Assembly: GCA_008632985.1 (NCBI GenBank)
Contig: QPGO01000336.1
Location: forward strand, 1-52,598
Origin: Psammoneis japonica
Taxonomy: Eukaryota
Length of the DNA: 52,598 bases
Reading direction: 5' to 3'
Part shown: piece by piece, positions 1 to 52,598 of the stretch
Numbering within the stretch: position 1 is the stretch's first letter
How the letters are laid out: every line of letters begins with the position of its first letter
Translations under genes and position numbers: made by a program
The notes under the pieces: model-generated
The model's input: the letters and a program-made list of their open reading frames with translations, nothing else
Told to the model about the DNA's origin: nothing
Database searches by the model: none

Positions 1-649
1 CTGGCATGCTTTTTGCACAGAAGCTGCCCAAAAGCCAAGCACATCAGAGCCCACAATGTGGCGGCCATCACTTTCATTGGTTTTTGCCGCGCAGCTGCAT
101 TTTGTTGGTGTCATTCTTTTGATTGTGGCGCCAGTGCTTGAATGTTGTTTTCACAATGCAAGGTGTTTGACCTTTTCATGAGGATTTTATTTTGCCCATT
201 TGTGCTGATTGTTCATGCTCAAGCAACTCACATTTGCAAATGTTTTGTGACCAAAGCTTTGGGTGGTGACAACCCATGCTCCATGCCTTTGACAATTTGG
301 CTTTTGTGTTGGTTTGTGCTTTTTTGTTTTTGCCCCCCTCATGTGTCACAGCACACAATGCTGTCCACATCTGCCCAGTCACCTCTGTGTGTGCACGCAT
401 TTCCTTGTTGCTTCGCACCTTTTTCCAGAACTCTGTGACAGTTTCTCTGCTGTGTTCTCAGTCTTTTTTCTGCACACACCATTTCCTGCACATTTCACAA
501 CAACACACCCTCTCCCCAAAATCAATTTGACCAGAGTGTGCGATGTTGTGATTTGCTCACTTTCTGCATGTTCCGCGCAAACAGATGGCTGGCCACAGTG
601 ATCAACGTGCCCATCAGCGGAGGAGGNCCAACCCCAACCCCTCCTTTGT

Positions 650-1400
650 CTTTCCTGATGATGTCAATTTTGATGACACAGAACATTTCGCCAATGGCTT
701 CAATGGTTGAGTTTGTGCATCAGATCATTGCCGGTGAGGACCTCAATGACCCTGTCTCCGGCAAGCCTTGTTTCCATTTTTTTAGTGCAAAAATCTCAAA
801 TCTCTGATTGACGACTGAGCACAGGACCTTCGCGCTACAAAATTTGTTGTCAAAACAGCCGTGCATCCCATGTGGAGAAGGGTGGTGGAGTCGGGCAACA
901 CAAAGGTCATGGAGCTGGCCATGGCAAGCAACAAGGCACTGGCGCTGTTGGCATTGGAAAATTGCTGGAAGGTTTGGGAGCACAAATCCAAGCTGGAGGG
1001 AAAGGAAGAAGAGAGTGAAGAGGAGGAGAAGGAAACAAAACTGGCGCCCTTGCACACAGACCCACTGCATCAGCGCGACTCTTGGAAGGATGGGGAATGA
1101 AGCGATTCACTGCCCTGCTTGAGGAGTTGAAGGATGACAGGGCAAGTGAGCCGGGTGTGCAGCTCGACACATGGCACGCTGATGGAAAGAAAAAGGAGAG
1201 TGAGGGAAATGAAAAAAGAGCCAAACCACTGAAAAGCCAGCGGGGGTGGAGATGAGAATGCAAGCAACAACAGAGCTTTCTGGTGACAATGAGGACCATG
1301 AAGAGAAAACGGATGAACCAAGCAACAGAGGCAACAAGGAAGAAGATGAAGACAGCAAAGAAGACAACAATGACAAAGAACATGTGCAGACTGCAGTGCA
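650..1400 (+). pseudogene. Decayed ORF relic, acidic C-terminus, probably TE-associated
   Basis: Fragments ALALLALENCWKVW...PLHTD plus an acidic tail, broken by stops and frameshifts, in TA- and CG-depleted DNA. Family not securely recognised. Confidence 0.35.
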
Positions 1401-2165
1401 GGCCTGTTGCAACTTAAAAAATGCCAGACAACAGAGCATCAATTTGGCACTCATTGATGCACCATGGATGCATTCCAGCCCCAGGCGGGACTCCATGTTC
1501 CGCAGTGCCAGAAGTTGGTCAATGGATGCACCCATCTTCAACATCAAACAAATGGCCAAGCTTGTGGTGAAATTGTGCCTCTTGCCACTTGATGTTTTTG
1601 CAAGTGCACCTGCCCTGCACGACTCTCAAGACATTGCAGAATTGCGCTGAAACAAAAAATGTCAAGAGTTGTTGGAAGGATTGCTCAACAAGTGCACTGC
1701 AAAATGGGACCTTGCGCTGCTGAACTGTGACAACGACAGTTTTTGAATCATGTTGCATGTCAGGCACGTGGATTTCCACATGATTTTGGNNNNNNNNNNN
1801 NNNNNNNNNNNNNNNNNNNNNNNNNNNNNNNNNNNNNNNNNNNNNNNNNNNNNNNNNNNNNNNNNNNNNNNNNNNNNNNNNNNNNNNNNNNNNNNNNNNN
1901 NNNNNNNNNNNNNNNNNNNNNNNNNNNNNNNNNNNNNNNNNNNNNNNNNNNNNNNNNNNNNNNNNNNNNNNNNNNNNNNNNNNNNNNNNNNNNNNNNNNN
2001 NNNNNNNNNNNNNNNNNNNNNNNNNNNNNNNNNNNNNNNNNNNNNNNNNNNNNNNNNNNNNNNNNNNNNNNNNNNNNNNNNNNNNNNNNNNNNNNNNNNN
2101 NNNNNNNNNNNNNNNNNNNNNNNNNNNNNNNNNNNNNNNNNNNNNNNNNNNNNNNNNNNNNNNAA

Positions 2166-2344
2166 CGGCTGGTGCTGAGTCAACCGTTGTGACGTGTTAT
2201 CGGAGGGAAGCGTTGTTTTTCCCTCCAATGGCGCTCACTTGTTACGAGTAGTTGTAACAGGCCTAAGAGTATCTTTGGATCGTTAGATTGTTATCATACC
2301 AGTACTGTGAGTAGCTGAGCCACTCGGCAGCTGGATTTACTTGC
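2166..2344 (+). repeat. 5' LTR (3' part; start lost in N-gap)
   Basis: Ungapped 179-bp alignment to 8585-8763 with 12 substitutions. Confidence 0.9.
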
Positions 2345-2346
2345 TT

Positions 2347-2357
2347 TGTCAGAGCCA
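2347..2357 (+). other. Primer-binding site resembling tRNA-iMet PBS
   Basis: TGTCAGAGCCA sits immediately after the LTR end. It matches the canonical (TGG)TATCAGAGCCA with one TA>TG change; the leading TGG is absent. Confidence 0.6.
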
Positions 2358-2648
2358 CAGTCCGCACTCCGCGGTTTGGCGATGAAAAACGATGAATGAC
2401 GTGATTGTGACGGTCATGTCACGATGGCACGGTTTTGACGACGAATGCCAACTAACCTGAGGGTATTCACCGTTGAGTGATGCCTTCGCATCAGTGTATG
2501 CGCAAAGCAGTGGGAGATGAGGCCACATCTCCGCACTCTTGAGGCCTGCGCGCATCGTCAACGCGATTTTGTGAACGTCAAAGTTTTGATGCACTTCTTC
2601 TAACACAACTGCTTTGTCTTATGATGCTGTGATGACTCAAGTTTCACC

Positions 2649-3931
2649 ATGGCGGCAAACCCCCCGAACCCGATGGAAACGGCCCTTGCTTGGATCGGTT
2701 TCCAGTCACCTGCTCAGCGCAGCGCGATCATGACTGATGTCGCTGCGTTTGACGATGTCGTCGACATGAAGGAATCGGACATCGATGCGCTCGCGCAGTC
2801 TTACTCGAGGAGGACTGCTGCTGAGGGGCGTTTCCACTTTGGACCAGCTCGCACCCGTCGCCTCAAGTCCCTCATTCATTGGGTGCATGACTTCCAACGC
2901 GTTGGTGAAAATCCCACCATCGACGGTTTGGATCAGGCGCGTTTTTCTCGATGCGCCATCTGCTGCGTTGTCGAGGGCCGATGTTCGCAGCCAGATGAGG
3001 GATCAATCCAAGTCTGTTGCTCGTGAGGCATCCCCTGGACTCTTGGAGAGCGAAAAGGTCTGGGTAAAATGGAGTGCCGCTTTCAAGAACATGCTCAGCA
3101 CGATGCTGGGAGTCGACGGCGTTCCGTTGATTTGTGTCACACGCGAGAACGAGGAGCCCGAGCCTGAAGGGCATGAGACTTTTATGCAGAAGTCGGTTGC
3201 ATGCACTCCACTCGAGGGTCCAGCTTTCGAAGCTGATTCTCGCACCGTCAGCCAGCTAATCGTTTTGTTCACAAAAGGTGCCCCAAGCGAGCAGTGGATC
3301 AAAGAGCACCGCAACAGCCAGAACGGTCGTCTCTACTGCGAATCTTTGGAGAACCACTGTCAGGGCGAGGGCAATGCCACCCGTCGTATCTCAGAAGCTG
3401 AGCGTTTGGAAAACACTCTGCACTGCAGGAGTGAACGCTCCATGACGTTCGAAACGTTCGTGAACAAGCTTCAGGAGATGTTCAACATTTTCGAAGAGAA
3501 TGATGAACCCAAGATGGAGGCTCAGAAGCTGCGATTGCCACTCGACAAGGTGCAACACCAGCAGTTGCAGAACGCAGTGGAGACCCTGAAGGCGCAGAAT
3601 GAGTTTGGAGGAGGGATCAGTTTCCACCACAGCGTGCAACCATCTTGCCGCTAAAGTCGCCACCCTCCCGGAAACAGTTGCGCACCGTCGTGCGATTTCC
3701 TCTGTTGTGTCCGGCGTCAGCAAGGAAGGTGATTCCATTTACAAAGAAGATGGGTCCATTGACACCGGATTTCATAAAAATTGGCATCAATTGAGCAAGG
3801 AAGACAAGAAGAAGGTCATGGATGAGCGTGTGCGTTTGGGACTCAAGAAGAAGCCGGGTGACCCGAAGCGCCGCGCTGCATCCGTCAGATCACTTAAAAA
3901 AGAAGAATCAGAAGCTGACGTCCCAGCTTGA
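2649..3931 (+). pseudogene. Copia gag, frameshifted
   Basis: Overlapping ORFs 2649-3026, 2785-3654 and 3599-3931 join into one gag-like protein (GVDGVPL.CV.RE, PLEGPAFEAD, L.CRSERSMTFE.F) downstream of the PBS. Confidence 0.8.
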
Positions 3932-4116
3932 GCAAGCGAACTGCACTGTTTTCTTCCTTGGAGACCACTGCCGGCACCGATTCCGGAAACGTTGGTGCAG
4001 GAACTGGCGGTCGAGGCGGCAACAATGCCGGAGACGCATTTGGGGGGCACCAGGAGCGTCAGCGACGCAGCTGACTCCCAAGCTGGACCCTGCTTTGTGG
4101 CCTCATCCAGTTTGCA

Positions 4117-7100
4117 TTGTGGCCACTTCATTGGGGCGGGGGCCAGCCGTGTCGTTCGAAAGAAACGTTGGTTCATGGGGACTGTCGTTGCATTTGTGAA
4201 ATTGCTGCTTCCACACGACGAGTCTCTGCGGCACGGACTAACACGCGTGCCACTCACGTCCGAACAGACGATCAGGTAAAGCATGGACGACTAGAATTGG
4301 ATTCACATGCTGACACTGCTGTTTTTGGTTCGAACTTTACCCTCTTGGGTTACACTGGAAGAGAATGCGACGCATCGCCTTGTGACGAGGGATGCGAAGC
4401 CATCAAGAGTGTCCCAATCGCATCGGCGGCCACTGCGTGGACCTCACCAGCGATGGGAGCAACGCACATCCTGGTGTTCCATGAGGGGCTTTGGATGGCA
4501 GATTCCATGGAGAATTCTCTCCTTGACCCGAATCAGATGAGGCATTTTGGTGTCACGGTTCAGGATGACCCCTGTTCCGAGTTGCCGTTGCATGTCCTTA
4601 CGGAGGACAAGGGATTTATGCTACCTCTCGAGTTGATGGGAACTGGTGTCGTTGCGGCCACTCGGACCCCCACTGACAGGGAGCTCCAAGAGTGCCCACA
4701 CATCCAGTTGACCTCCCAACAACCTTGGGATCCACACAACGTCAAGTTTAAGCAGCCCAGACCTCGACGTTCTGTGGAGGAGGAAATGGAGTTGATTCGG
4801 TCGGTCGCAAGTGTTCGGTCAAGCCCCAGCTGCGCGTTTGGTCAGGATCCTGATTGTGGCAACCCTCAGTCCGGGGGCTGTTGTGATGGGAGACTTGTCT
4901 GCTGTGTGGACCAAGTTCAATCAAGATTGATGGCGTTAGTCCAGGTGGAAGCGGATGTTCAGATCGCGGCCACTGAGACGATCGGCTCGGAACTCGAAGA
5001 CGCGCCGTCCCCGAAGACTTTCATGTCCAAGGAACGGCACAGTTCTGTCACCGCTGTTGACTTGAGCGAGCGCTGGGGCATTGGATTGAAACAAGNNNNN
5101 NNNNNNNNNNNNNNNNNNNNNNNNNNNNNNNNNNNNNNNNNNNNNNNNNNNNNNNNNNNNNNNNNNNNNNNNNNNNNNNNNNNNNNNNNNNNNNNNNNNN
5201 NNNNNNNNNNNNNNNNNNNNNNNNNNNNNNNNNNNNNNNNNNNNNNNNNNNNNNNNNNNNNNNNNNNNNNNNNNNNNNNNNNNNNNNNNNNNNNNNNNNN
5301 NNNNNNNNNNNNNNNNNNNNNNNNNNNNNNNNNNNNNNNNNNNNNNNNNNNNNNNNNNNNNNNNNNNNNNNNNNNNNNNNNNNNNNNNNNNNNNNNNNNN
5401 NNNNNNNNNNNNNNNNNNNNNNNNNNNNNNNNNNNNNNNNNNNNNNNNNNNNNNNNNNNNNNNNNNNNNNNNNNNNNNNNNNNNNNNNNNNNNNNNNNNN
5501 NNNNNNNNNNNNNNNNNNNNNNNNNNNNNNNNNNNNNNNNNNNNNNNNNNNNNNNNNNNNNNNNNNNNNNNNNNNNNNNNNNNNNNNNNNNNNNNNNNNN
5601 NNNNNNNNNNNNNNNNNNNNNNNNNNNNNNNNNNNNNNNNNNNNNNNNNNNNNNNNNNNNNNNNNNNNNNNNNNNNNNNNNNNNNNNNNNCCTTGACTTC
5701 GGATTCTACGATCGGGTTTGGCACAGGGAGAATGCTGGTCTTGGTGACCAGAAGCTCGGCAGGTGGCTCGGAGTGTCCCACCGGATTGGCAGTCTAATGT
5801 CACATTACGTGTTGACGCAAACCGGTCATGTCATGTCGCGGACATCTGTTCAGCGAGTCACCAACTTGGAAGCTGGCACTCAAGAGAATCAAGATCGGTT
5901 CAAGGCTTTTGACGAGGAGATCCAGCGCAGACTTCGTGACCAAGATTTTCCCGAAGACGAAGAGCGCAGGATCAGCCCCGAAGACTGGAAGGACTGTCTT
6001 GGGTGTGACGATGAATTCCTCGACGAGTGCGATCGCGTCATCAGTTCTGAAGATGTGTCAAACAAGGACGACGACAAGAAAGACGAGGAAGCCTCCCCGG
6101 AAGCGGCGGATTGGTGTCACCTCAATGTGGAATTGGCTTTGCCGAGAGATGATGATGGTCCCGAGTTCGCGCGCGCAACGAAGAGGTTGAGGGATGCGAA
6201 CGGCATTCCCATTGGGACAGCCAACGACAACCCAATCCCAGATGCTCGAATGCATCAGGTGGAGCATCCCGATGGTCACACTGCAGCACTCTCAGCTAAC
6301 TCTGTTGCCATGAATGTGTTCGCACAGATTGACGAGGACGGAAATCGGCATGTTCTGTTCGACGAGATTGTGGACTTCTGTGCGAATGGGGACGTCCCGG
6401 AATCCGATTTCTTTGAAACTGAGCAAGGCAACAAGAGGCGACGCAGGACCACGAAAGGATGGGAACTCTTGTTCCAATGGAAGGATGGCAGCACTGCTTG
6501 GGTTGACCTGAAGGACGCGAAGGAAGGATTCCCTGTCCAGGTCGCCGAGTTCGCCATCCAACGCAAGATCTCGAAGGAGCCGGCGTTTGCTTGGTGGGTT
6601 CCGCACGCAATGAGGACCCGCAAGCGTTCTTGTTGCGAAGGTCAAGTCGAAGCATTGGTTGAGAACCCATGAATTTGGTGTGCGAATTCCCAAGACTGTG
6701 AAGGAGGCACTGGAGCTCGATTGTGCGAACGGCAACACCTCATGGCATGACGCCATTTGCTTGGAAATGAAGAATGTTCGAGTTGCGTTCGACAAGTTCG
6801 AGGGGGACGAAACGGAACTGCCTCCTGGGTGCCAACAAATCGACTGTCACATGATTTTTGATGTCAAGTTGGGAGAGAACTTTCGGCGCAAGAGTGGGAT
6901 GGTTGCGGGTGGTCACATGACCGACACCCCAACTGCCATCACCTGCTCCTCAGTTGTTTCCAGGGATTCGGCAAGGATTGCTCTTGCACTTGCCGCGCTC
7001 AATGACTTGCAAGTCTTTGCCTGCAACATCCAGAATGCCCACTTGACAGCGCCGTGCCGAGAGAAAATTTGGACTCGTGCCGGTGAAGAGTTTGGCGCGG

Positions 7101-8369
7101 AACGCGGTGAGATTGTGATTGCAGTCAGGGCACTCTACGGATTAAAGAGCTCCGGCGCGGCATTCAGGGCCTTCCTGGCGGAGACGCTTTGTGATCTAGG
7201 ACACAAGCCCAGCAAGGCTGATCCCGACGTTTGGATGAGGCCTGCAGTGAAGCCAGACGGATTCGAGCACTACGAGTGCATCTTGGTGTGCGTCGACGAC
7301 TCACTGTCGATCAGTCATGAGCCGATGAAGACTGTGGATGGCATCAAGTCGAAGTTCAAGCTCAAAGACGATAAAGCAGCGGAACCCGAATCCCACTTGG
7401 GTGCCAAATTGTCGAAGATGGACCTTGCTGACGGCACTGCCTGCTGGACGATGTCAGCAGAAGAATGCTGCAAGGCGGCGGTCCGGAACGTTGAGGACAA
7501 ATTGGCCAAGGAAGGAAAACGGCTACCGAGTAAAGCACACACACCTTTGAGCAGCGGATGCAAGCCGGAGTTGGACACTTCAGGCGAACTGGATGCAGAA
7601 GGCCTCAACTGCTGCCAAGAGCTGATTGGCGTTTTGATTTGGGCCGTGGAATTGGGCAGGGTCAACATCATTTTGGAAGTGTCAAACATGTCGGCTCACC
7701 TTGCCTTGCCGCGCATTGGTCACTTGGAACAGGNNNNNNNNNNNTTTGCATGCCCCCAAACAGGTCCCAAAGCGTCGGGTGGCGTTCGATCCTACGCATC
7801 CGGTCATCGACGAGTCTAGGTTCAAGGAGTGCGATTGGCTCGACTTCTGCCGAGACGCGCAAGAGGCGATTCCCCCCAACATGCCACCACCTCGAGGTGA
7901 CATTGTGTCTGCTCATTGTTTCGTGGATGCCAACCATGCTGGTGACGTTTCAACTCGCCGCAGTCATGCAGGCACTCTGATGTTCCTGTGCCGAGCACCC
8001 ACAATCTGGCACTCGAAGAGACAGAACACCGTGGAGACCAGTGCTTTTGGCGCCGAGATCGTGGCACTCAAGGTCACGGTGGAACTCATTGAAGGTCTGA
8101 GGTGCAAGCTTTGAATGTTTGGAGTTCCTGTTGAAGGTTCTACGAACGTGTTCTGTGACAATGAAGCAGTGTACAAGAATTGCTCCATCCCGGAGTCTGC
8201 TCTCAAGAAGAAGCATCATTCCATTGCATGCCATCGCAACAGGGAAGCTGTTGCTGCGGGGACTGTTCACTTGGCAAAGGAGGATGCGGAAACCAACCTC
8301 GCGGATTTGTTCACGAAGGTCATGACTTCGATTCGTCGCAATTTCCTGTTGGACAAGTTCACTTGTTGA
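4117..8369 (+). pseudogene. Copia pol (PR-INT-RT-RNaseH), frameshifted, premature stop, Tyr-eroded
   Basis: ORFs 4117-6672, 6659-7819, 7701-8114 and 8115-8369. Motifs include DSHADT, LGRWLGVSHRIG, CHMIFDVK, ALYGLKSSG, CVDD, SKRQNTVETS. An in-frame TGA falls at LRCKL*MFG (probably CGA>TGA). Confidence 0.93.
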
Positions 8370-8547: not shown

Positions 8548-8763
8548 TCCGATGTGTCGGATTTAGTTAGAGTGCTGTTGGTGGCGGCTGGTGCTGAGTC
8601 AACCGTTGTGACGTGTTGTCGGAGGGAAGCATTGTTTTTCCCTCCAATGGCGCTCACTTGTTACGAGCAGTTGCAACAGGCCTAAGAGTGTCTTTGGATC
8701 GTCAGATTGTCATCACACCAGTGCTGTGAGTGACTGAGCCACTCGGCAGCTGGATTTGCTTGC
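8539..8763 (+). repeat. 3' LTR
   Basis: 8585-8763 aligns to the 5' LTR. The start is inferred from the PPT and an imperfect terminal inverted repeat (GAAAGAAATCC ... GGATTTRCTTGC). Confidence 0.8.
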
Positions 8764-9694
8764 GATGTGGAGATGCCAGATGCCCACCGCGGATGCACTT
8801 CCAGTCAGCGCGATGGCGCCGCTGTTCAACCGCAGTGTTGCTGTGATCTGGGTCTCTGCCAGTGGAAAATGCAAGGAAACTGAGCTTGCAGGGATGGGAA
8901 GACTTGCTGGCGTGTTGCTCCCTTTCCATTCCCAAGCTGCAATGGCATGACCAGAGGGAGGGAGAGGAGGGAGCACTTTTAACCTGGTGTTCACACTGCT
9001 CAACTTGTTGCCGCTGCTGCTGCAGCGAAACTCGCCACCCCCCTCTTACAAAGAGCGAGAGAGAGCAGCAGCGGCAGCGCTGGTTTGCCAACTTGCTCAC
9101 ATTCAATTGGTGATGAGAGGGGTGTCAGGGGGTTGTGAGCTCAACTGGCAATGAGGAATGAGGCATCTCCCCTTGTCTGTGTCTTGATGGCCAGGCTGGA
9201 AACTGGCATCACTTCATCCGACCTCTTGTGGTGATCTGGTGCTCCAAGGGTCTCGAGGGAGCTGAGCTTGCAGGGATGGGAAGACTTTGTCATTGACCCT
9301 TTTCCCTCCAAATCTGGAGTGGCATGGATGCTCCAGTGACGTGCACATGCAGTGCAAGGCAAGGCACACACCAGAGGGCAGCGTTTGGGAGGGCAGGGCA
9401 GGCCTGGCCTGGCTGGGCGGCTGTGGCAAGGCAAAGCAGTGTGCCACACAGCTGAGAAGGCTCTTGGCTTGGTGGCAAGTTGAGCCTTGGCATCAGGGTG
9501 AAGAACAAAACTGTCACCAGCCAATGAGCAAAAGTTCACTGCAGAGTTGGGGGTTTCAGAATTCTCGCGTGCTTTGTGGGGGCAATGTGTGTCATCCAGG
9601 AGGGGTCACAACTGCACAAGGGTTGGAAAAGTGTCACCTGGGTTGCATCAAAGACCTTCATTGCCCTCAGCCTGCTGTTCTTGGGTTGGTTGGT

Positions 9695-10262
9695 GCTTTT
9701 GCAGTGTCCTTTCACTGTGGTGTGTTGGGATTTTCAAGTCTCAGCCTTTCTGAGGCAAAGTGGCTGCTGGGGTGGCACAGCTGCATGAGGGTGGCCTTGC
9801 AACCCTCAACGACAGATCTCCAAGTGTCGCATGTGGTCTTGAAAAGACCCTCAATGCCCTCAGACTGCAGTTGTTGGGTTTGCTGGTCTCGCCATGGCAG
9901 TGTCCTTTCACAGCTGAGTTGGGATTTTCAAGTCTTACCCTCTTTGTCCTTGCAAGCTTCAAAACCACAGTTCTCAACACATTGCCTTGGGTGTCCACCC
10001 TGCAGCTCTCAGGTTGGTGGGTGCCACCATCATGTCCTTTTGCTGTGTGGAGCTGGGGAATCCAAGTCTTGCTCTTTGTGAGGTGAAGCAACAGGGGGGG
10101 GGGGGGGGGCAAAAACTGCTGCGCACACAAGGCCACCAGCAATGCTCTTGGCCACAGCTCTCAAACCCCACAATGCCCACAGGCTGCTGTTCTTGGATTG
10201 GCCAGTCCCCTCCATTGTGTCCTTTCACAGTGCAAGGTTTGAGTCTTGTCTTTCTTGTGAGG
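9695..10262. repeat. Degenerate dispersed-tandem repeat (4 copies of a GTGTCCTTTCAC...TT.CAAGTCT core)
   Basis: Core copies near 9701, 9897, 10031 and 10213. Confidence 0.6.
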
Positions 10263-13200
10263 ACAAAGTGACATGGCGGGGCTGCAGCACTGCACCACCA
10301 GAAAGACCTTTGAAGTCTCAGCCATGGCTCTAAAAGTGATCCCTTGTGTTTTGTGTTTGCCAAAGACCTGCAACACCCTCAGCCTGTGACTCTTTTGCTT
10401 GACGGTTCTGTCAGTGAGGGCTCCAACAACTCTGAAAAAGAAAACAGCTGCAAAAACAGTCTCGCAGGCACAAACAAACCAACAAGCAAGCTGTGTGAGT
10501 CCCGCCAGCACAAACAATGTGAAAATTTCATTCTCCACAAGAGCACACTTCCATCACAAAAAAGCTGCAACATCAGTCTTTGTTGAACACAGATGTGCTG
10601 CTTCAGATTTGAGCCACAGCAAATGTGACAGCTCCCGCGTCAGCCAGCAAAGAGGCTGACAATGAAAAGATTCATTTGGGTCAACTTAAATCACAAAAGA
10701 ATGGCCACTTGTTGCAAAATGTCAGAGTCATTTGGGTGAACTTAAATCGCAAAAACCTCACAAACAGGAGAGATGTGGTCAAAGGGCACCAAAAAAGGCC
10801 ATTTGCAAAATGACATGGCAATGATCACCAGGCCAACAGGCTTGGCTGAAAGAAGGCAAAAAAGGATCTTTGCCAAGACACACATCAAGTGTCATTTCCT
10901 GCTGCTCTGCACATGTGGTTGGTCATTGACAGCTCATCATTGACCATGTCACCAAAAAGCATGTGGGTGCCCTTGCAAGCATCATGTTGATGCTGCAAAA
11001 ACAGGGTTGTGCACCCACAGCCCACACCATGCAGGCTGATCAAACCCCGTGTTGTTGTTGTTGTCTAAAGAACAGCATGTTTTGGATGTCACATCCAATG
11101 CATTGTCAGCTCCACACGTGCTTTCATTGAAAACACAGTGCTTGCATTTCTGTTGTTGCTGTGGTGTCAACATGGGCCACATCACATGGCCTCTCTCACC
11201 TGCATTCTCAACACATCATTCAGTCACACTCCAGCAAGCCACTTCTCTGCCACATCTGCCACAAGCAACAGCTCTGACAAAGCAGCAGAAAAGACCACTG
11301 CAAAAGCAGCAATGAACCATTCTGTGCTCCCACTGTGAAAAAATCATGGGCAACTCCACCAACATCTCCAAGTTGCCCCAAAGAAAGTCAATCATGACAT
11401 TCTCCAATGAACCTTTTCAGTTGGCAAAACCACAGCATGCTCTGCAGCACTTGGTAAAAAATCATGTGTGTGCACTTCATGGCTGTTTAAAAAAACAGAA
11501 ACCACATCAAAAGCTCCAAGGAAAGAGACAGCCTGTTTCCTCCTGCCCCTCTGCTCAATGGTTGGGGCATGTCCAGTGCATGAAAGCTGATTGCGCGTGC
11601 ATGCTTGACAGCATGCAATGATCTTCTGCCAAAAGAATCTACTTTGTCATGCATTTTGAGCCTGCTCATGAAGCACCTCCAGCCAATTGCCAGTGATTTG
11701 CAGGTCAATTTGGTGAGCAATTTGCCACACTTTGCCCCATGGCAAAATGAGGGCTGCCAATTTTTTTTGACAGCCACAGGAGGAGCAAAAGTTTTGAGTT
11801 GCGTGACCCTTGCATTTGTCAAACAACATCAGTTCTGCAATGTTGAGCCACTTGGACCTGGGCCAGATGGGGACCCTGATGGAATCACAAAAGGCCAATG
11901 AGAGCAGAGCGAGTGGAACACCCGATGGAATGTTGGACAAGACAGGAGTGGAACAAGGAGACACGCTTGTGCTTGGGCTCAAGAAAGGAGAACTTTGCAG
12001 TTAAAGCTGTGGTGTGCTGCTCAAGCTTGGCTGACAAGAAAGACACTCATTGAGAGCTTTTGATGAAGCTGGGTCAACACTTGACGGCTGACCTGGCGTG
12101 CTGCAAATCAAGTGGCTTTGCACTGCAGATCTCAAAAAGAGAAATGCCCACTGAGAAGGGTCCATTTTCCAGTGCATCTGCCAATTTGAACAAGTCAAGG
12201 AGCACATCAGGTGGCACAAGAACCCCAGCTTGGATTGGTTGTGTTGGTTTCCACTGGCACTGCCTCGGTCAAGTTGTGTGCACAACCCCCACTCTTGCTG
12301 TGAGCATGCAGCCTTGCCCACACCTGGACAAGCGGTGCTGCTGTGCCGCAAGACGAGTGTCTCGTGAAGAACATTGGTTGATTTTAATGTGCTCTGAAAA
12401 CCCGGCAATGTGAACGTTGGATCTGATTCTGTGATCATCTCCATCAAATCATGTGAGCATTTCTCTGTTGCCTTGCGATGGAAGCATCTCGGAATGACTT
12501 TCCCACGGATTCTTACATGGCCCACATGTTCAAAATTAACATTTTGTGCAGATTTCACACAGGCATCGCTGATCCAATCGAAATCGCGCAGTGCGCACAT
12601 CCAGTGTTCATTGTTTTTCGTGTCATTTCCACGAGCATTGCACTGCCAATGAATCCAAATAATTTTGTTTCCATGTTTGACCGCAAATGCAGTGTTTGTC
12701 ATTTTCCTAAACAAAATCTGTGAGACATGAAGACACGTCGGACATTTTCCTGCTTGGGTTGATGACATCATCCATTGCTGTTTTAATTGAGCCTTCGACG
12801 CCAACGAGGCCGGTTTCAGGGCTGCAGCAGTTCCGTGCATCTGCACGTTCTGCAGTTACATGGATTGGATGAAAAAGCTTCATCCATTTGAGCTTTTGCA
12901 TGCAGGGTCATTTTCACTCCCTGTGACCGGTGTAGATGCTCGTTCATCATAAATTTTTTCATTCCAGACATTGTTGTTTCCATTTGTTTATTTTGTGTGT
13001 GTTAAGGCGGGCCGTCGGCTTGTTTTTTTTGCACGTCTTTTCCGGGTTTTTACGCGTTTTTGACGGGTCGCGACAGAAAATGACACGACAAAAGCACGAA
13101 CGACAATGATGATGTTCGTGACGAGCGGTGAGTTGCAAAGCATCACCTCACGAGGGACACTCATTGGTTTTATTGTCGTCACACAGTGCAGATTGATTCA

Positions 13201-15065: not shown

Positions 15066-15121
15066 GTTCTGACAGTTTTGTCAGCCCCAACTCATCTTCT
15101 TGATCGGTTCCTGCATCGGTC

Positions 15122-18100
15122 ATGACAGGTGCTCATTCGGACACCACCTCATCACCCGGCAAGCCGGTGCCAAAGATGAGGAGATGGCTTGAAGAAGAAT
15201 GGCACAGTGACTCTGAGACAGATGGGCTTGGCGATGAATGGCACAGTGACTCCAAGATGGATGGGCTTGGCCCGAACAACCAGATTCCAAATGTAGATGA
15301 GTTGGCCAGCAAGTCTGATGATGACAGCGATGCCAACACAGAGGTCAGCTGTGACTTCCTTCAAGGTCGGCATGTCGACTCGATGTCTGATGATGTCGAC
15401 GATGATGGTTTCGGTCAAACACACTGCGCGGATGGGGCCCGTGGGCATCAGACTCTGTTGGATGACCCCGTTCAACCTTCCGTGAGTGCATTGATTGATC
15501 ACACAAAATCCGCCAAGCCCACCGATCTAAAGTGTGAAAGAATCAATGTTGCTTGTGCGGACTCGGAGTCGTCATGCCGCCACAAAATTCATCTGTTGTT
15601 TGAAATGCATGACAAACCCATTGCCACTTTCAAGGACAAGGACAGCTCCAATCTCACCCATCTCAGCACGCCCGGCACACATCATGTCTTGGCATGTGAG
15701 AGAGCCGATCATGGATTTGTGATGGCGAACAATCTTGAGTGCTCACCTCATTTTACTCTGGAGGATTCGATGCTTGCCAGCTGCAAGTTAAAATGCGATC
15801 GTTTGAACATCCAATGTGCCGAGGCAAAGGCCTGCCAGCACAACACCTTGAAGCATGGGGGGAATGTCGCGTTTGCATCCATTGGCGAGGAAAGCTTTAT
15901 GGAGGACATCCTGTCTCTTGACCTTGAATCCGCATGGTGTGATGTCATGGTGAAGGACGATGAGTCGGATCCTCGGAAGAAACATGTGGCACAATGTGGC
16001 CCCAGGGGCAACCGAGGATTTGCCGTCGGAATTTGTGGGGACCAATGTGTTGATTGTGACGAAGATGGGATTGCTCATCCAGAATTCAAGACCGGGACCG
16101 CCCGGTGCACTCCTTTGATGTTGGCATTCAACAAACTTTGTAAGAAAGCTCACTCTGCATTCCTTCCCGACAAGCCGTTCATGGACGAAACCCTGTTTCC
16201 TGCTAGGAGGAAAGACTTCGCCATGAAAATTCATGAGGAAATGGACCTGGAGTTTGTTTCTTGCAATTTTTTGATGCATCTGAACGATGGGTCGTTCACT
16301 GGACCGGACCGTTTAAAGCATCACACCGACTCACAGGGATGCCGCACACACAGCGACCTGCATGATGCGTGGCAAACATTTGTGTGCAAACGCACCAATG
16401 TCAGGGTGACGGCTGCAATGACGGGTGGTTGGAAAAATTCTGTGTCCAACTGTCATGAAAGGATGGAAATTTTTGGCAAGGCAAGTGATTGCTTGATCCA
16501 CCAGTGCAACCAACCACCGGCCGAGCGATGCAAGGTGGTTGCCGCCCTCCACTGTCCGGACACAGTCCCTGTCAAGACAACACCCGTTCATTGCCAGCCA
16601 TTGGCCCAAATGGTGTCACTGTTTGACAAGATTCTCAGAGTCTCCAATGCACTGGCCGAGGACGGCCGCACAATGTCGGGTTTCCTGTTTCTGGAAATGA
16701 TGTGCAGTTTTCATGCATTCTCCAACAATGTCTGCTGATGTGAATTGTTTCGTCGTTCTTGCATGGAGGTGAGTGAGTGCGATCCTTTGCCTGTGCTCTC
16801 ACTCCCGGTTGCCTCTGTCATTTGCCAGGATTGGGGCTGCTCGTTTCGCCCTGGTTGGTCGTACGCCAAGGAGTGCCGCAGGTTCCTGGGACAGAACTTC
16901 CCATCCTTCGATGGTTGCCGTGACTTTGACGGTGAAAAGGTCGGCGGCGTCCGACACCAGTCGACACCGTCTCACCCCATGATGGGTGACAGTTCCGACA
17001 ATGCCTGCTGAGAATTGCACATGATTGTGTGTCCCCCCACCGCAATGTCTCCATCTCCCATGTCACACGCAAGAAACTCATCAAAAAAAAACAATTTCAA
17101 AAGTGGCTGGTGCACAAGATCTGAAGTCTCAAAAGGTTGTCACCGGTTGTTCCACCCTGGCGAACGAATTTGACATCAATGTCTTGAACATGGCGCATCC
17201 GGGAAGTGACATGGGAATGAAGAAGAAGCTTCGTTTGGCTGGCTTCGACATTCCAAACAAAGAATCTATGACAATGGTTGTCAAGAGTGCATCTACAAAG
17301 ACGAAATTGCCCATCATGAATGGTGAAGAAACAACTTGTGTCGTCACGCGGTCGATCGGCGACGGCCGCCGTGATGAGGGCGAGGACAGCATTCCTCGCA
17401 ACGTTCCCATTCCCTTTTCACAACTGAGCGACGATGGATTGCCCGAGGTTCATTTGTCGGACAAGTCCAATGGCCGCCGACCACGATTGCTGCAGCAGAT
17501 TCATCTAAATTGGAGCTTGGATCCCACAGCAAATCATCATGTGCCGACCTGGGCGCCGGTGAATTGCAATTCGGCCGACACTGTGAGTCAATGTCTGGCC
17601 ACGAGAAAGCTGTCTCTCATGGCAAGAATGCCCACACTGAAAAATCATGAGTGGTCTCGCAAGGCCAGGACTGCCGTTCAGGGGCGGGAGAAGTTGGAAT
17701 CGGATGACACCATCACTTTAACGGATTTCTCTGACACCGTGGCTGTGTTGCAGAAATTGTTGAACAAGCGACAATGCCTGGCGCTTCATGATCCATCGGA
17801 ATTTGTTGCAACCAAATGCTTGGGCATCCAATGCAAATCTCTGGTTGAATCAATCGAAACAAAGAAGCACTCTGACGGCTCTTTCAAGGCCAGTCTGTCC
17901 TGTTCCGACATTCCCCGACATGTGAAGACCGCTCAATTCGGATCACTTCACAAAGACCACTTGCCACCACTTGGACCAGTCGGCTGGGACAAGGGATTGT
18001 ACAGCACCAGACATGATGCCTTGAGCGCGTTGTTGTTGACTCTGATGTTTGAAACCAACTGTGGAAACGGCAGGAGCTGGTTGTGGCACCATCTTCGAAT

Positions 18101-18311
18101 TGCTCGTGAGTTTCTAGTGCTGTTGCCGTCTTCTAAAAAGAATGCATCCGTGGTGCGGGTGGTTGCAATGGTGTGCAGAGAATCCAAGAATGCATCACGG
18201 GAGCCCCGGGTGCATGCAAGACACTTGTCCGAGAGCAATGGAAAGGCACTGCGTCCCTTGGAGGTGGCAAGAGATGCCCATGGTCAATTGGATGGTTTCT
18301 GTTTGTCGTGA
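15122..18311 (+). pseudogene. Large (~1000 aa) uncharacterised gene relic, convergent with the MULE transposase; possible 2OG-Fe(II) dioxygenase-like segment
   Basis: ORFs 15122-16738, 16745-17011 and 17025-18311 read as one interrupted gene with an acidic N-terminus and nearly no Tyr. The Gly-rich repeat region from ~13.9 kb may be its true 5' end. Confidence 0.6.
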
Positions 18312-18540: not shown

Positions 18541-18690
18541 GTTGGACACAAACGGGGTGGAATGGTTGGTTTGTTCGTTTGTCGGCAAGTGCCTGAATCC
18601 AACATGAGTTGCTTCATTGGATGCAAACGGGGCGGAACAGTGAGTTTGTTCGTTTGTCGGCAAGTGCCCGAATCCAACATGAGTTGCTTC
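18541..18690. repeat. 75-bp tandem duplication
   Basis: ...TTTGTTCGTTTGTCGGCAAGTGCCYGAATCCAACATGAGTTGCTTC in units 18541-18615 and 18616-18690. Confidence 0.85.
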
Positions 18691-21410
18691 GTTTGCAGTT
18701 GTTGGCTTCCTTGCCACAACGGCACCCAGCTTCCTCATTTTCTCACGTCGCTCTGCTTCCACCTGAACAGCTTTGGCATCATCCACTTGACTTTGGCGGG
18801 ATCTTTTCCTCACCAGCAACTTGTTCGTTCTAGATGCAAGGATGTCTTTGTGCTGCAGTGCGGCTGCATGAGGACACTTGGTTGTCTTGTGGAACTCTTC
18901 ACAGTCGCCCATGCAAAGGGTGCGGCCACCCGGCAAATGTTTCATTGTCACATGGCACAGACCCATGGTGAGCTTGTACAATGCATCATGTGAGTGCTTG
19001 CAATCGCCGACAAAGTGACCCCTCAGGGCATTCTCGCAGTCGATCATTCGTGTTGGATCGATGGGTGTCCCAAGGGACTCTTGGGTGTTCACCAAGTGGC
19101 CACCCTTGTGTGCAACCATGTCCTTCTCCAAATCCATCTTGCCAATTTCCTCAATGACATTTTGGGTGAGGGCCTTGTCCTCATCGAGAATGCGCCAACC
19201 CTTTCCAATGGCAGAACACTCTTGCGTGTGTGTGTGCACCAACCCAGGCAATGTGTCGTTGAGTGCACGATGCATCAAGACACCAGAGGGAAGGAGACCA
19301 ACGAACTGATTGCTTCCCCACATTTCAAGATTCATTCTGCAACGCAATGACAGGTAAATTGCATGAGTGTGGAATGCGGCAACATGCAATGACAACAGAA
19401 ATGGCACAGACTCACCTTTCGTGCGAGTTGTTTTGGGGCACGCAGCCCGGCTCCCCGAATGTGGAAACAATGCCACTGAGAAAAATCTTTGTTCTCGACG
19501 CACTGGGAATCAAACACCTCCGCAAGCTTTGTCTCTCCTGCCATTTTTCATGAATGAATGACCATCTTGGCCATTGGGCAAAACAGCTCCCATGTCTTGC
19601 ATCGATGAAGCTTCCTCACATCCTTTGTGGCCACCCTCATGAGGAAGCTTTGGTCTTTGACGCACTTGCGACATTGTCCATTGTGCTTTCTCGTAAAGTC
19701 GGTCTGGAATTTACGCATGAGGTGTGGGCAGCAAGTTGCAAAAGGATCTTTGGGAAACAACAGTTTGAACGCATTCCGGAATGAGTGCAAGTGATCCGAG
19801 CACAATCCGCCACCAAAGTGCAAGTCGTCTGTGCCGAACAAATCGAAAGCCGCCTTCTTTGTTGCAAGCAGCAGGTGCAGTGCACCCTCTTCGTGTTCCG
19901 CTGTTGCAAGTGCATAACCGACAGGCTTGAGCAAGGACAAAAAATGTTGCTTGCCCCCCCTTTCTCGTTTTGTGTGGTCCGTGACTCCAAAAACAATGGT
20001 CACAAAATCATTGCCGACCACACCATGCATGCCGTCTATCATTCCAACTATTTTGAAGTCGAGGTCCTTGCAGTCGCACATGTTTCTGAGCAGGCCAAGG
20101 GACGAAAACACGATTGTGTTGTCCATTGCCGGCAAGAATGGACCCTTGCTCCCCTTTTTCTTGTTGTGCGATTCCTCGGCATTTCGCTGACACAACAGCA
20201 TCCTGTCTCGAACCTTTTTGGGAAGGTCGCCGAGGTCGGGGACCGGAAGACAAAACATGTCTGTGTGGGGCATTCCCTCTTTGCTGTGTCGCTTGCCCCG
20301 GCATCCGGTGTCACACAGATCTTTGGCGAGTTCCATCATGTGAACCTTGGAGGCCACCAAATGGGGCTTGCAGGTGGATGGAAGACACAGAGCATGGTTT
20401 CAACTGAGTGCAAGCAAGTCTTGTGTGCACTTGATCTTGACCTTTTCGGTGGGATTGTCCCCAAGGGATGACTTGGGACGTTGATCGTTGCTTCTGTTGT
20501 TGGAATCAAGCAAGCGACAAATCTTGTTGCTCACCTTGTCCCTCAGTTCTTGGGTGGCAAACAATGGGGTGATGGATGGGTTTTCGGAAACCGACAGTTT
20601 GGCAACTGTGCGGCGGGTGATGTCCTTCGGTTTGAGGGTCCTTCGGTTTGAGGGGACGGGTCGTCCTGTTTTAGCCTGTCCACGTGATCCTTGACCAGCG
20701 GCGGCAAACCTCGGGGAACCAGTGGACAGCATGTGGTCCACCCACGTCCGGCGCGTGTGGGTGGAGTGATCTCGGAGGATGCGACATTTGCAGTGCTCCT
20801 TGCCAGGGAGCGTCACTGTCTCAGCTTGAAAGGGACAATCCTTGTCAACCTTGCAGCTGTGTGTTGTCGTGATGGGCTGCAGCGGGTCTTGTCTCCTCAG
20901 GAATGTGTTGTTGTTTCTGTCCGTCTTTGCGTCTGGGCCCAGAAAATGTTTTGCCTCGTTTGCAGACTTCATGAGGTCACCTGGAACGAGGTCAAGGGCA
21001 CGGCCGGAATCATGATCATGGCGGGCAATCAGCTGGGGCAGAGAAAGGCTGCTGGCTGTGTCAGGGCCACACAGCTCGGGTGGAATGGCTTCTGGCCCAT
21101 GAGTTTCGGAATCTCCATTGACAGATTCTTTGCATTTCACGACGGAGGAAGATTTCTTTTTCAGAAAATCATCACAAACGGCAGCAAGGAGCTCGTCGCC
21201 CCTTTCACCCAAAATGGAGTCTCCAACGTGCTGGACCCGCTCAGCAAATGCTTTGGAGTCCGGAGCAAAAATGGAGTGATCCTCAGTGCTGATCTTGCGA
21301 GCCATGACCGCAAGACATGAATCTCTGATGGGGCCGGGACCCACCCCTTCAGCCAGAGATCGGAGGCGGGTGGCGGGAGATGGAAGGTCGCCGTCGCTGA
21401 GACCAGACAT
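18690..21410 (-). mobile_element. Mutator-like (MULE) transposase relic with N-terminal C2H2/WRKY-like finger, DDE domain and SWIM finger
   Basis: ORFs 20400-21410 (SCKVDKDCPF...DHSTH), 19548-20360 (MIDGMHG...; CSDH..FRNAF..LFP....CCPHLMR) and 18436-19503 (CMGDCEEFHKTTKCPH). Frameshifted; TIRs not identified. Confidence 0.8.
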
Positions 21411-26129: not shown

Positions 26130-27127
26130 ATGGGTTCAACACTTGCGTCTTCTTCTGCTTATATGGCATCATCAGTTCCACGTTCTATTGAAAAGGTAGT
26201 ACCTTGTACGCCAGGAACGGTGAATCGACTGATTGGAACGGTGGATATCGACGGCAAGGGCACGACGCATGATGCGCTCGCCGACTGCGATCCGTGCATG
26301 CTCTTGGATCAAGGCACCATTACCAAGAACAACATGCCTCCCTTTGGTGCACATCCTCATCGTGGTCATTCCGTCGTGACAGTTCTTATGCAAGGATCCA
26401 TGACGAGTTGGGATTCCTTTACAAACAGCAAAACCACAATTACGGGTCCTTCTGCGTATTGGGTGAATGCAGGATCGGGCGTCTTTCACGATGAAGTAAC
26501 AGTCATTGAGGATGAATCCGATCCAAAGCAACACGTGTCACTATTTCAGTTGTGGGTTGGAGTGAAGGAAGTAGATCGTCAGAAACAAGCCACCCTGAGT
26601 TGGGCCAAGGATTTGCCTGTACAGAAACTCATGGAGGAGGACGGTCAAGAGATTGGAAACATTATTTATTATGTGGGCGGAACTACCACGGAACTCGATA
26701 TTCCTAGACCACTGACTGTGGCACAAGTTTGTCAACAGGCTGGAACCACCTATAAGTTTCCAATTCCCTCCGATCATACAGGCTTCATTGTAAATCTGAG
26801 TGGAGCGCCAAATGTCGATTCCAAATCCAAGCCAGCGTCGTTTGGCGGAACGACACCTACAAAACTCAATGACGTGTTGGTATTAGTAAGGATGGTAATC
26901 ACATTGAGATTGTATCCGACACGAATCATCCTACGGATTATCTAGTTTGTGTCGGAGAACCCCATGGCGAGCCTTGGAGTAAAAAGCTCGTGGCCAACGG
27001 AGCTGTTATTGCCAAGTCTCCTGAAGAGGCTCAAGAGATTGCAGCCAAGGTGGAAGAAATGTCCAAGCGAGGCAAGGAGACTGGAGACTTTTCTCCCTTT
27101 GGGATGAAACCAATGGCAAAAGAATAA
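26130..27127 (+). CDS. Pirin-family cupin protein (one apparent 1-bp frameshift near 26885)
   Basis: DPCMLLD, FGAHPHRG, AGSGVFHDE, FQLWV. The C-terminal pirin segment (YLVCVGEPHGEP...) continues in a shifted frame to TAA at 27125-27127. Confidence 0.85.
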
Positions 27128-28849: not shown

Positions 28850-30150
28850 GCACTATGAAGGAGGACAGAGCATTTCAACTGGAGGAAACGGGGACAAGTC
28901 AAATCGAATTCCAGGAGAGATCTCTCGTTTCTCAAGAGAAGAAACTCATTATTTCCGCAGACCAAACGTCGAGCTTCCGCCGGGATGAGGTGAAAAGTCG
29001 TATGCCTTGGAACGCTTTTGCTGTTAGAACGAGAAGGAGTAGGTCCCAACCAAGGAAGAGTTCAATCTATAATGTGCGTAACACTGAAACTAATCGTGGT
29101 GGATCAAGTCCCGGACTTCTTGAATGGTTCTGGACTGGTTGTTGACATTCCTCCCTCGAGATTGATTGAAGCCATCCAGACAAGCTGTACTGAGGCTTGC
29201 ACAGCATCAATGGTGAGAATGAAGCATTGGTCTGGTTCCTGAGTTGCGCAAGGATAACTTGTTTGTGATTGACGAGAGGATAGGGATGCCTCTGACCGAC
29301 ACCGAGTTTCCTTCTCGTGTGTTGGAGACCTTTATGCTTCCAGAATCCATTTCATTTGCAATTAAGAATGAAATAATGGAACGCGCCATCCAGGAATACT
29401 CGGACAAGAAACTTTGGGATCGCATGTGAGATTTGCTTTCAATTTACACAGGCCGAAAAGGTAATTGCAATGTTCCTTATGATCGGGTCCGTATGATATA
29501 AGAAGGACGGAAGACTGTATGCTTCTCGGCAGAAGCGACTCAAGGAGGCTGGAGTCGTGTGGGACATGTTGGAGGATCAATGGGGTCGCATGTACGATTT
29601 GCTCTTGGTCACAAACGCCTTGAAGAGCATTGCAATATCCCTAAGATGCACAAAGAGGAACAAAGAAACTAGGCGCTTGGCTGGATACTCAACAATCGGC
29701 TAAAAAGTATGGGAGACTGGACCGCGTCCGAGAAAAACGACTTGAGGATGCTGGCATTGTGTGGGGCGTGTTGTAGTATCAACGGGAAATTATCTTCCTA
29801 TTGGTGTTTCAAGGAGTCGCATCGAGCACGGAAAGAATCTAGGAAGTGGGCTGGACCAGCAACTATCAGTAAAAGGAAACGGGAAAATGACCACTTCTCG
29901 GCAAGGACGGCTTGAGGAGCTTGGTGTCGAGTGGAATACGTGCATACCGGTAGGTCAATGGGGTTCCATGTTTTTGTATTCAATTCGATTTTTGAAGGGA
30001 GGAGCGTTGCAATGTTCCCTACTCGTGTCTCAGAGAGGATGGAGAGGTATTGGGAGTTGGTTGAAATCGCAACGGCGAGTAAAAAGAATGGGAGACTGGG
30101 CACTTCTCGGCAATAACGACTGGTGGATATTAGTGTCGTTTGGGGGTCAA
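28850..30150 (+). pseudogene. Partial helicase / helicase-associated (HA) repeat gene relic, copy 1
   Basis: Repeated W..M(Y/F).LL....GxCNVP....WL..QR...RL..LG..W units broken by stops and frameshifts. Similar to 32050-34200. Confidence 0.7.
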
Positions 30151-31308: not shown

Positions 31309-32049
31309 GGTGATGACTTTACTATGCTACTTTCCTCGTCAAAGAAAGATTGTGAGAGAATCGAGAGCAAAAATTGAGGCATCCATCGAGAGGAAGCATC
31401 GACGTCAAGTACCAGACACGTAGAAATCTACGAGAAACGCACCTCAAACAAAAACCGCCCGTATCGATCGTGTCGCCCGAGAGAGGCAGAGATGGTGTAG
31501 TCACCATTTACAATATTCAATATTGGGCTGGATATGAGGTATGATTCTCATGAAATGAACCGGGACTGCAGAACAACGGCGAGTTTTGGTGTTTGTTTTC
31601 AGCCGATGTTGTGATGAGGTCGGAGGGAGATTGGAAGTGATAGCGATTTAGCTCTTGTTTTCTTTAGCCACGTAATAAGATAAGTGACCGTATTCCACTT
31701 GTCTATTTATTATGCGATCAAATGACATTTTTGCTCAATTTATGAATTGCCCCTCTAACCGGCGCTTCTTTCCCATACTGATTTATTTCGCGGCTTTGTC
31801 TGATTTGGCTCGCAACTCTGCAACCGCTGCAACCGCAATGAGCAGCGAGCATGTTTTCACCTGAAATCAACGCATCAGAAGCATTTATTGACTAAGTCAT
31901 AGACCAAGCTGAGACGAGCACTGCAGCTTGAGAATAGAGAACTTCAAATTCCGAAAGTTGCGCAAATAAAGAGAAAGTGCCGCTCCCGGAACTATGGCAG
32001 TACGTCACTCCTCATGAGTCAGGAGCCCAACATACGTTAATCTAAGGAG

Positions 32050-34200: not shown

Positions 34201-34348
34201 CCGTAGGTGAGTGACTACCTGTAGCATTTATGCTCAAGGCCATTACTTTATAACATAAGCAATCAAAAGGCATTGGCTGCGGTATTATGCACGTCTATTC
34301 TTTGAACACTATTATCTTTTAGCCATACAGATAACGATGGAGCAAGAA

Positions 34349-34623: not shown

Positions 34624-34688
34624 AACCCTACAATCATGTACGTGATTACTACGTAATGTTTATGGAAAGAAAGAGTATTGTCGAACCT

Positions 34689-52553: not shown

Positions 52554-52598
52554 AGGCAAGATGTCCTCATGGCACTGGCCTTTGCTCTTCTTCCATGA

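Follow-up and report, generated by a model that had tools for sequence, protein, structure and literature searches.

The 52,598-nt Psammoneis japonica contig QPGO01000336.1 (the window; all coordinates are positions in it) carries at 4117-8369 the pol of a full-length but dead Ty1/copia-type long terminal repeat (LTR) retrotransposon. Conserved tyrosines (Tyr) of this pol have been replaced, mostly by Cys or His, and the DNA that encodes it is nearly stripped of the dinucleotide TpA. We consider it likely that the copy was killed by a DNA-level, repeat-restricted hypermutation that converts TpA to TpG or CpA (A:T to G:C) on both strands.

The element was read against a pol profile built from 88 intact full-length relatives (1250-1450 amino acids, 1379 match columns). 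Five frame pieces of the window tile profile columns 7-1378 collinearly with these relatives, the reverse transcriptase (RT) occupying approximately columns 812-1168; because the pieces stand in order and a run of 595 N fits the missing columns 294-492, the copy can be regarded as full-length. That run is close in length to the 199 missing columns (about 597 bases), which points to a true-length placeholder and not an unsized gap, and by collinearity with the intact relatives the integrase core is presumed to be hidden under it (5096-5690). RVT_2 (PF07727) was found in the open reading frame (ORF) 6659-7732, residues 53-237 (E = 1.4e-11; 44.9 bits, cut-off 31.6). It was the only Pfam family recovered from six pieces of the element, the Gag, N-terminal pol and RNase H pieces being without a match at E ≤ 0.01, and neither integrase nor RNase H gave a sequence match in PDB (0, with an intact relative and a 40-sequence profile as queries). 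Relatives of the RT are numerous in the database searched (2081 at E ≤ 0.001), and those that carry a name among the best 120 of these 2081 matches belong to Fragilaria crotonensis and Nitzschia sp., at 58-63% identity, on which account the host can be called diatom-like. Columns at which 80% or more of the 88 relatives share a residue are termed conserved below. The element consists of the following features.

2164-2349, plus strand: visible 3′ part of the left LTR, a direct repeat with 8585-8768; its start is hidden by an N run at 1790-2163, and 12 TA are kept.
2649-3654, plus strand: Gag-like region read in two frames that overlap (2649-3026 and 2785-3654), with no Pfam family; the Gag assignment is by position.
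4117-5094, plus strand: pol piece A, profile columns 7-293, the N-terminal part with the family's DSHAD motif; two conserved Tyr now read TGT and TGC.
5096-5690, no strand: 595 N in place of profile columns 294-492 (about 198 codons).
5692-6669, plus strand: pol piece B, profile columns 493-801; of six conserved Tyr one is kept (TAC 5707), three are His and two Phe.
6630, plus strand: frameshift between pieces B and C, one extra letter, absent in four of the four sister contigs that span the site.
6653-7732, plus strand: pol piece C, the RT, profile columns 809-1168; the counted part holds 11 conserved Tyr, 10 of them now Cys or His and one intact (TAC 7136).
7289-7291, plus strand: Tyr of the RT catalytic motif YVDD changed to Cys (TGC), column 1021, Y in 87 of 88 relatives.
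7734-7744, no strand: run of 11 N preceding piece D; the join across it interrupts pol.
7746-8111, plus strand: pol piece D, putative RNase H, profile columns 1177-1294, assigned by its position C-terminal to the RT, with no profile match.
8112-8114, plus strand: in-frame TGA where 87 of 87 relatives have Arg at the same column; it presumably arose from CGA by a CpG transition.
8115-8369, plus strand: pol piece E, the end of pol, profile columns 1296-1378.
8585-8768, plus strand: right LTR, the segment that matches the visible left LTR; 10 of the left copy's 12 TA are gone from it.

At the conserved Tyr columns the window differs from its relatives in 20 of 22 cases (11 Cys, 7 His, 2 Phe), whereas conserved columns of other residues differ in 55 of 515 (91% vs 11%; Fisher p = 1.3e-16). 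The disparity is also found at a looser threshold of 60% (24 of 29 Tyr columns vs 122 of 704 others, p = 1.4e-13) and when the RT alone is aligned with 120 shorter homologues (8 of 10 vs 14 of 173). Only the TAC codons at 5707 and 7136 survive among the 22, and the Cys or His that the window carries is seen, column by column, in 0-1 of 83-88 relatives. One further invariant Tyr (column 809, 88 of 88) reads CAT at 6653-6655; it lies upstream of the ORF start and is outside the 22. In the Gag-like ORF 2785-3651 (289 amino acids) Tyr makes up 0.3% of the residues.

An initial annotation of this DNA had proposed a systematic Tyr-to-Cys/His erosion of pol, extending to the catalytic YVDD, and had quoted ten motifs as examples. 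All ten are present where it placed them. In nine of them Tyr is the family residue: LVCVDD (column 1021, Y in 87 of 88), NAHL (84 of 88), TCSSVV (88 of 88), PPGCQ (79 of 88), ESHLGA (88 of 88), SGCKPELD (88 of 88), NCCQELIG (74 of 88), GLRCKL (86 of 87) and SIACHR (81 of 87). The tenth, IWHSKRQ, does not belong with the others; its column (1261) is mixed, with Y in 53, H in 17 and F in 17 of the 88 relatives, and His is natural there. With that motif removed the proposal stands, the catalytic Tyr included, since intact relatives do not share the replacements and other conserved residues have changed far less often.

The kind of change involved was examined by assigning to each of the 75 conserved-column differences the single base change that would restore the consensus residue. 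TpA-type changes account for 36 of the 75 (23 TA>TG and 13 TA>CA), the others being transversions (18), positions that need more than one change (14), CpG transitions (5), G>A outside CpG (1) and A>G outside TpA (1). No T>C was seen outside TpA, so that 36 of the 37 A:T>G:C changes at conserved columns fall at TpA. Six unmutated relatives passed through the same classifier yield 0-1 TA-type changes each among 10-30 differences. When the TA-type changes are set aside, 37 of the 515 non-Tyr columns still differ in the window, a proportion near the values for these relatives (10 of 642 to 25 of 343).

Tyr becomes Cys or His because a TA lies inside every Tyr codon. Elsewhere the events are GTA, giving Val>Ala, and TTA or CTA, giving Leu>Ser and Leu>Pro, together with N>D, I>V, K>E, M>V, T>A and R>G, which come from a TA that straddles a codon boundary where the first codon ends in T. 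When all codon pairs are enumerated, exactly the residue changes observed are obtained, plus S>G and I>T, which were unseen at these columns. In the same enumeration TA>TG/CA turns no sense codon into a stop; TAG is removed entirely, and TAA is removed except by way of TAA>TGA. The reading frames therefore stay open while the enzymes they encode are destroyed. The annotation's argument that targeting TpA hits every Tyr codon and removes TAA and TAG is thus exact, save for the route from TAA to TGA, and its remark that enzymes can be killed in this way without making the DNA AT-rich agrees with a GC content of 54% in the element and about 47% in the gene zones of the window. That the process evolved as a way to kill enzymes is a suggestion that reaches further than sequence by itself can carry.

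Over pol (4117-8369) the observed-to-expected ratio of TpA is 0.13, with TG at 1.35, CA at 1.31 and CG at 0.90. In 80 environmental loci of the same family the median for TpA is 0.70 (interquartile range 0.60-0.78, minimum 0.24), and the depletion is therefore a property of the window copy, not of the family. One of these loci, L050, belongs to an environmental contig set and resembles the window copy. Its RT is 59% identical to that of the window and its TpA ratio is 0.24. It has Cys or His at 19 of the 22 Tyr columns, with choices between the two unlike the window's at many columns, and 41 of its 132 conserved-column differences are TA-type; its ORF 490-4701 is a single uninterrupted frame of 1404 amino acids. 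The loss is partial in two more loci, L040 and L064, each with 5 Cys/His; in L040 the TA count drops locally at 3601-4400. It follows from L050, and in part from L040 and L064, that the process is not limited to the window's assembly.

It might be argued from these values that the family, or the repeats of the host in general, avoid TpA for reasons of expression or stability and tolerate Cys and His in its place. TpA is in fact mildly low everywhere, at 0.45-0.74 in the gene zones and at the family median given above. The relatives nevertheless keep their Tyr; in the 79 loci other than L050 it occupies 1335 of 1545 Tyr-column cells, with Cys or His in 27, in keeping with the 0-1 of 88 per column found among intact relatives. 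The window copy has lost a catalytic Tyr and carries a frameshift and an in-frame stop, and its RVT_2 score of 44.9 bits, like that of L050 (38.4), is below the 63-67 bits of intact relatives. An explanation by composition or selection is, in our judgment, hardly credible.

Three comparisons bear on the direction of the change, and all of them support the annotation's view that TA is ancestral. At the sites where the window shows Cys or His, the residue in the 88 intact relatives is Tyr. The two LTRs make the same point. Aligned with blastn, 2166-2344 and 8585-8763 are 93.3% identical over 179 bases, and 10 of the 12 differences pair a TA in the left copy with TG (5) or CA (5) in the right one, so that one LTR copy retains TA at all 10; of the remaining two, one is CG/CA and one is a transition of another kind. 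TA is thus gone from 10 of 12 sites in the right LTR, whereas about 1% of all other positions differ. The third comparison is with sister copies, taken as contigs of one DNA run (X1) that align to 5691-7733 at at least 80% likeness; two other runs, X2 and X3, gave no aligned sequence. The X1 contigs number 364, which makes this a multi-copy family, and they define 133 variant places, 110 of which are transitions. Among the 33 sites listed (from 40 of the 133 variant rows), 7 are CA/TG doubles, at which the window carries one form and other copies the other at the same dinucleotide, as with TG in the sisters where the window has CA. TA is present in other copies at 4 sites and in the window at 2, while 9 sites are CpG-type and 11 are of other kinds. 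Four of the doubles lie on conserved Tyr codons (5803, 6253, 7040 and 7202) and two on a conserved Leu (6741) and a conserved Arg (6896). Since these conserved residues polarise the sites to TA, six of the doubles are not of CpG origin. Different copies have been struck independently at the same TA, which implies that the changes postdate the divergence of the copies.

These data also speak to the concern that the pattern is artefactual, either because a modified base at TpA was miscalled or because the assembly merged reads from many copies. The setting gives that concern some substance, in that there are N runs to either side of the element, its family has many copies (the 364 contigs) and X1 may be the source of the assembly. 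Miscalling, however, would give no complementary split between TG and CA, and X1 contigs carry the TG and CA versions of one site as distinct sequences. The pattern recurs in L050, and partly in L040 and L064, in an unrelated environmental set. The sized N gaps, moreover, suggest scaffolded short or Sanger reads and not uncorrected nanopore data. We think an artefact very improbable.

The TA-poor condition extends well beyond the element. Counts of TA along the window delimit three blocks.

1-22336, no strand: TA-poor block containing the element.
About 36241-38616 and 50035-52598, no strand: further TA-poor blocks.

Together these hold 128 TA in 25361 non-N bases, compared with 1061 in 24439 in the gene zones, or 5.0 vs 43.4 per kb within the window. 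Per kilobase, the observed-to-expected ratio of TpA is mostly 0.00-0.21 in the blocks and 0.45-0.74 in the gene zones. The edges are sharp, within about 100-430 bases (22337/22510, 35806/36240, 38617/38787 and 49929/50034), and genes 300 bases beyond them are normal; in the window the loss of TA is confined to the blocks. Counted on both strands, TAA occurs at 4.3 per kb in the blocks and 20.2 in the gene zones, TAG at 2.4 and 18.0, and TGA at 44.6 and 35.8. Frames of at least 150 codons number 18.0 per 10 kb in the TA-poor blocks and 9.4 in the gene zones.

The extent of the blocks is relevant to a reading in which the element was edited during retrotransposition, before integration, by an ADAR-like A-to-I activity on its RNA or by a deaminase on its single-stranded complementary DNA (cDNA), as APOBEC3 does to retroviruses. 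ADARs are known as metazoan proteins, which counts against the RNA version. Editing of this kind would give each copy its own pattern, and the CA/TG doubles are what one would then expect. Action on one strand nevertheless predicts TG only or CA only, and both outcomes are found here, with TG:CA at 23:13 at the conserved columns, Cys:His at 11:7 and the LTR differences at 5:5, in line with the equal enrichment of TG and CA in pol. TA is also scarce in the surrounding 20 kb and in two blocks that lack RT homology. Two points from the literature favor editing before integration: PMC4866542 reportedly uses the principle that editing of cDNA can make the two LTRs of a single provirus unlike each other, and ADAR favors U before the edited A (10.64898/2026.01.13.699255). 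On balance we regard editing before integration as improbable. Both strands have been hit and about 20 kb around the element, together with the two further blocks, are TA-poor, and for these reasons we favor integrated duplex DNA as the target of the hypermutation.

Another reading accepts that the process is real and acts on DNA, and holds that it is a by-product of base modification or repair bias in silenced chromatin, without being a dedicated defense. We know of no enzyme for the process. TA-poor DNA coincides with CpG-poor DNA at 1-2, 9-12, 36-39 and 50-52.6 kb (CpG 0.11-0.46), as in methylated silenced repeats, and the sharpness of the block edges is also in its favor. On the other side, the Copia element has lost about 87% of its expected TpA while its CpG still stands at 0.90, and a comparable process in Bigelowiella natans, considered below, was on in only 11 of 15 lines, which its authors read as regulation (10.64898/2026.01.13.699255). 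We consider a by-product unlikely, though it deserves more weight than the alternatives already discussed.

The relation of TpA to CpG differs from one stretch to another. At 1-1789, 9000-12000, 36241-38616 and 50035-52598, TpA is 0.01-0.21 and CpG 0.11-0.46, with TG and CA at 1.5-2.1; in the Copia element and at 13-21 kb, TpA has been lost and CpG is kept at 0.60-0.99. The existence of CpG-poor and CpG-keeping stretches, both of them TA-poor, suggests two processes that differ in speed or in target. Since CpG in the Copia element is 0.90, against 0.11-0.46 in neighboring blocks, the erasure of TA runs far ahead of CpG decay.

The few TAs that remain are not a random sample. In the window Copia the flanking contexts ATA/TAT and TTA/TAA number 1 and 24, against a baseline of 6907:4863 in the relatives (p = 1e-8). 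The other TA-poor blocks give 4 and 40, against 335:286 in the gene zones (p = 2e-9), and L050 gives 14 and 22, against the baseline of the relatives (p = 0.018). ATAT is absent among the 111 surviving TAs counted (left LTR and leader excluded), where 8-10% would be expected. This bias suggests that the mutator has an extended context preference, and new TAs arising by other mutations could also feed it.

Several points weigh against the reading we prefer. Pfam searches with 53 ORFs (at least 110 amino acids) from the other TA-poor blocks gave no family above cut-off, ATG11 falling below it (20.3 vs 22 bits), and in consequence those blocks may themselves be retroelement DNA. CA/TG doubles in tandem or dispersed duplicates elsewhere in the window admit a second explanation, since the decay of a CpG to TG in one copy and CA in the other has the same appearance; such doubles make up 2 of 7 differences at 18542-18693 and 5 of 28 between the repeats at 36146 and 37825. 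The sister comparison draws on X1 contigs only, which may share the sample of the assembly and would then not confirm the letters independently. In the left LTR and 5′ leader (2164-2663), 17 TA remain where 31 are expected, in comparison with about 10% in the rest of the element, and there may be an assembly join between copies beside the N run 1790-2163, which would weaken the argument from the LTRs. Finally, the LTR differences taken alone are compatible with cDNA editing before integration. As to how the stretch 2164-2663 came to be TA-rich, the mutator may have acted patchily, in tracts, the leader may have been protected, a younger copy may have converted it, or an assembly join may be responsible.

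Other features of the window can be noted here. Of 14 long ORFs searched against Pfam across the window, the only family found was Pirin (26130-26942), with a sub-threshold GCFC. In TA-poor DNA, the plus-strand ORF 15104-16735 (544 codons) contains 0% Tyr and 11% Cys plus His. It has 30 homologues (best E = 6.5e-43, at 31% identity) in a family without a Pfam name, and shows Cys at 3 of 6 majority-Tyr columns; as judged from these alignments, it is probably the hypermutated gene of an unclassified element. A homologue search with the adjoining ORF 17025-18308 returned none. Most of the small TA-poor island is flanked by two direct repeats (36146-36296 and 37825-37975), each about 150 bases long, which are 75% alike, lie 1.7 kb from each other and could be the ends of an old element. 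The gene zone contains a diverged dispersed duplication (28858-29900 vs 32044-33959, 73-78% identity) and a 272-base tandem repeat in two copies (34346-34895, 83%); the gene-zone duplicates differ in an ordinary manner, with many transversions and few TA-type changes.

Taking the evidence together, we envisage a mutational process that converts TpA to TpG or CpA on both strands, probably acts on DNA after integration and is restricted to repeat or foreign DNA, neighboring genes being spared. The leading candidate for its chemistry is deamination of adenine in 5′-TA-3′, with oxidation of thymine and subsequent mispairing as an alternative; since TA is self-complementary, either reaction would leave one and the same footprint. 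The footprint itself shows the direction of change, its specificity for TpA, its occurrence on both strands, independent hits in different copies and confinement to blocks; action on the integrated copy and a role in defense are what we infer from it. If the process is driven by an enzyme, it would represent a form of genome defense whose chemistry, a change from A:T to G:C at a two-base palindrome in duplex DNA, is not known from repeat-induced point mutation (RIP) or APOBEC. A major group of phytoplankton would then possess it, and its natural specificity would be of interest for base editing. There are practical consequences as well. Because the process makes no stops and removes TAA and TAG, dead elements retain long open frames, and gene callers and censuses of intact elements will count such copies, L050 among them, as live genes. 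A tally of Tyr-to-Cys/His replacements against a family profile is an inexpensive diagnostic of the process.

RIP, described in Neurospora and other ascomycetes, is the nearest classical analogue in its logic; it changes C to T at CpA, creating TpA and stop codons and leaving AT-rich DNA. The two processes are alike as transition hypermutation of repeats in a dinucleotide context on both strands, with transposons inactivated and block-like compositional domains formed. In the window the direction is reversed, with TpA destroyed, no stops made and GC raised to 54%. RIP was considered as the agent at this locus and rejected, as it needs C>T at CpA and an excess of TpA, and we find TpA at 0.13 and CA at 1.31 in DNA of that GC content. 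The targets of APOBEC3 and ADAR are single-stranded cDNA and RNA, and the traces of their action, G>A in the case of APOBEC, are confined to one strand. The two share with our process a deaminase-type hypermutation of retroelements with a dinucleotide preference; the window, unlike their targets, has been hit equally on both strands and in neighbors that are not Copia.

Among diatom Ty1/copia elements, the CoDi groups (Maumus et al. 2009, PMC2806351) resemble the present one in RVT_2, in their LTRs and in the diatom relatives named above, and differ from it in that the window copy is hypermutated and dead. The words 'dinucleotide', 'TpA', 'RIP' and 'hypermut' do not occur in the available text of that paper, nor in that of a 2025 preprint on diatom transposable elements. 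In the available portion of a mutation-accumulation paper on Phaeodactylum, CG is the most mutable dinucleotide. Full-text literature searches found no report of TpA hypermutation in a diatom.

The closest match is a process that Mettrop et al. report in the chlorarachniophyte B. natans (10.64898/2026.01.13.699255). In mutation-accumulation lines, 231 of 302 new mutations fall in two integrated viral regions, and 230 of those 231 are A>G or T>C, all at TpA. An ADAT2-like DNA deaminase is proposed, and the Discussion compares the process with RIP. The terms 'diatom', 'stramenopile', 'tyrosine' and 'retrotransposon' are absent from the preprint text searched for them. The window footprint matches this TpA-only hypermutation. 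In both, A>G and T>C are confined to TpA on either strand, the DNA affected is foreign or silent, and the spectrum elsewhere is normal; TpA-depleted coding sequences in B. natans are, in addition, enriched for reverse transcriptase and DDE endonuclease domains. The two differ in host and in the DNA that was hit, which in B. natans is that of integrated nucleocytoplasmic large DNA viruses (NCLDV) and virophages. They differ also in degree, as the regions hit in B. natans keep many TpA (rho 0.45 in the NCLDV region), compared with 0.13 in the window pol and 0.00-0.06 in several of the window's kilobase bins, and in the nature of the evidence, the rate having been measured there in real time and the window being known from its footprint only. 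With this parallel in mind we propose, tentatively and with somewhat less than an even chance that every part is correct, that diatoms may possess an enzymatic, repeat-directed editor of 5′-TA-3′ in double-stranded DNA, which would work fastest at ATA/TAT and slowest at TTA/TAA, soon after insertion and well before CpG decay. It would amount to a natural base editor of adenine (or thymine) in duplex DNA. Such an editor may share its origin with the Bigelowiella process, as an old defense common to stramenopiles, alveolates and rhizarians that runs in the opposite direction to RIP.

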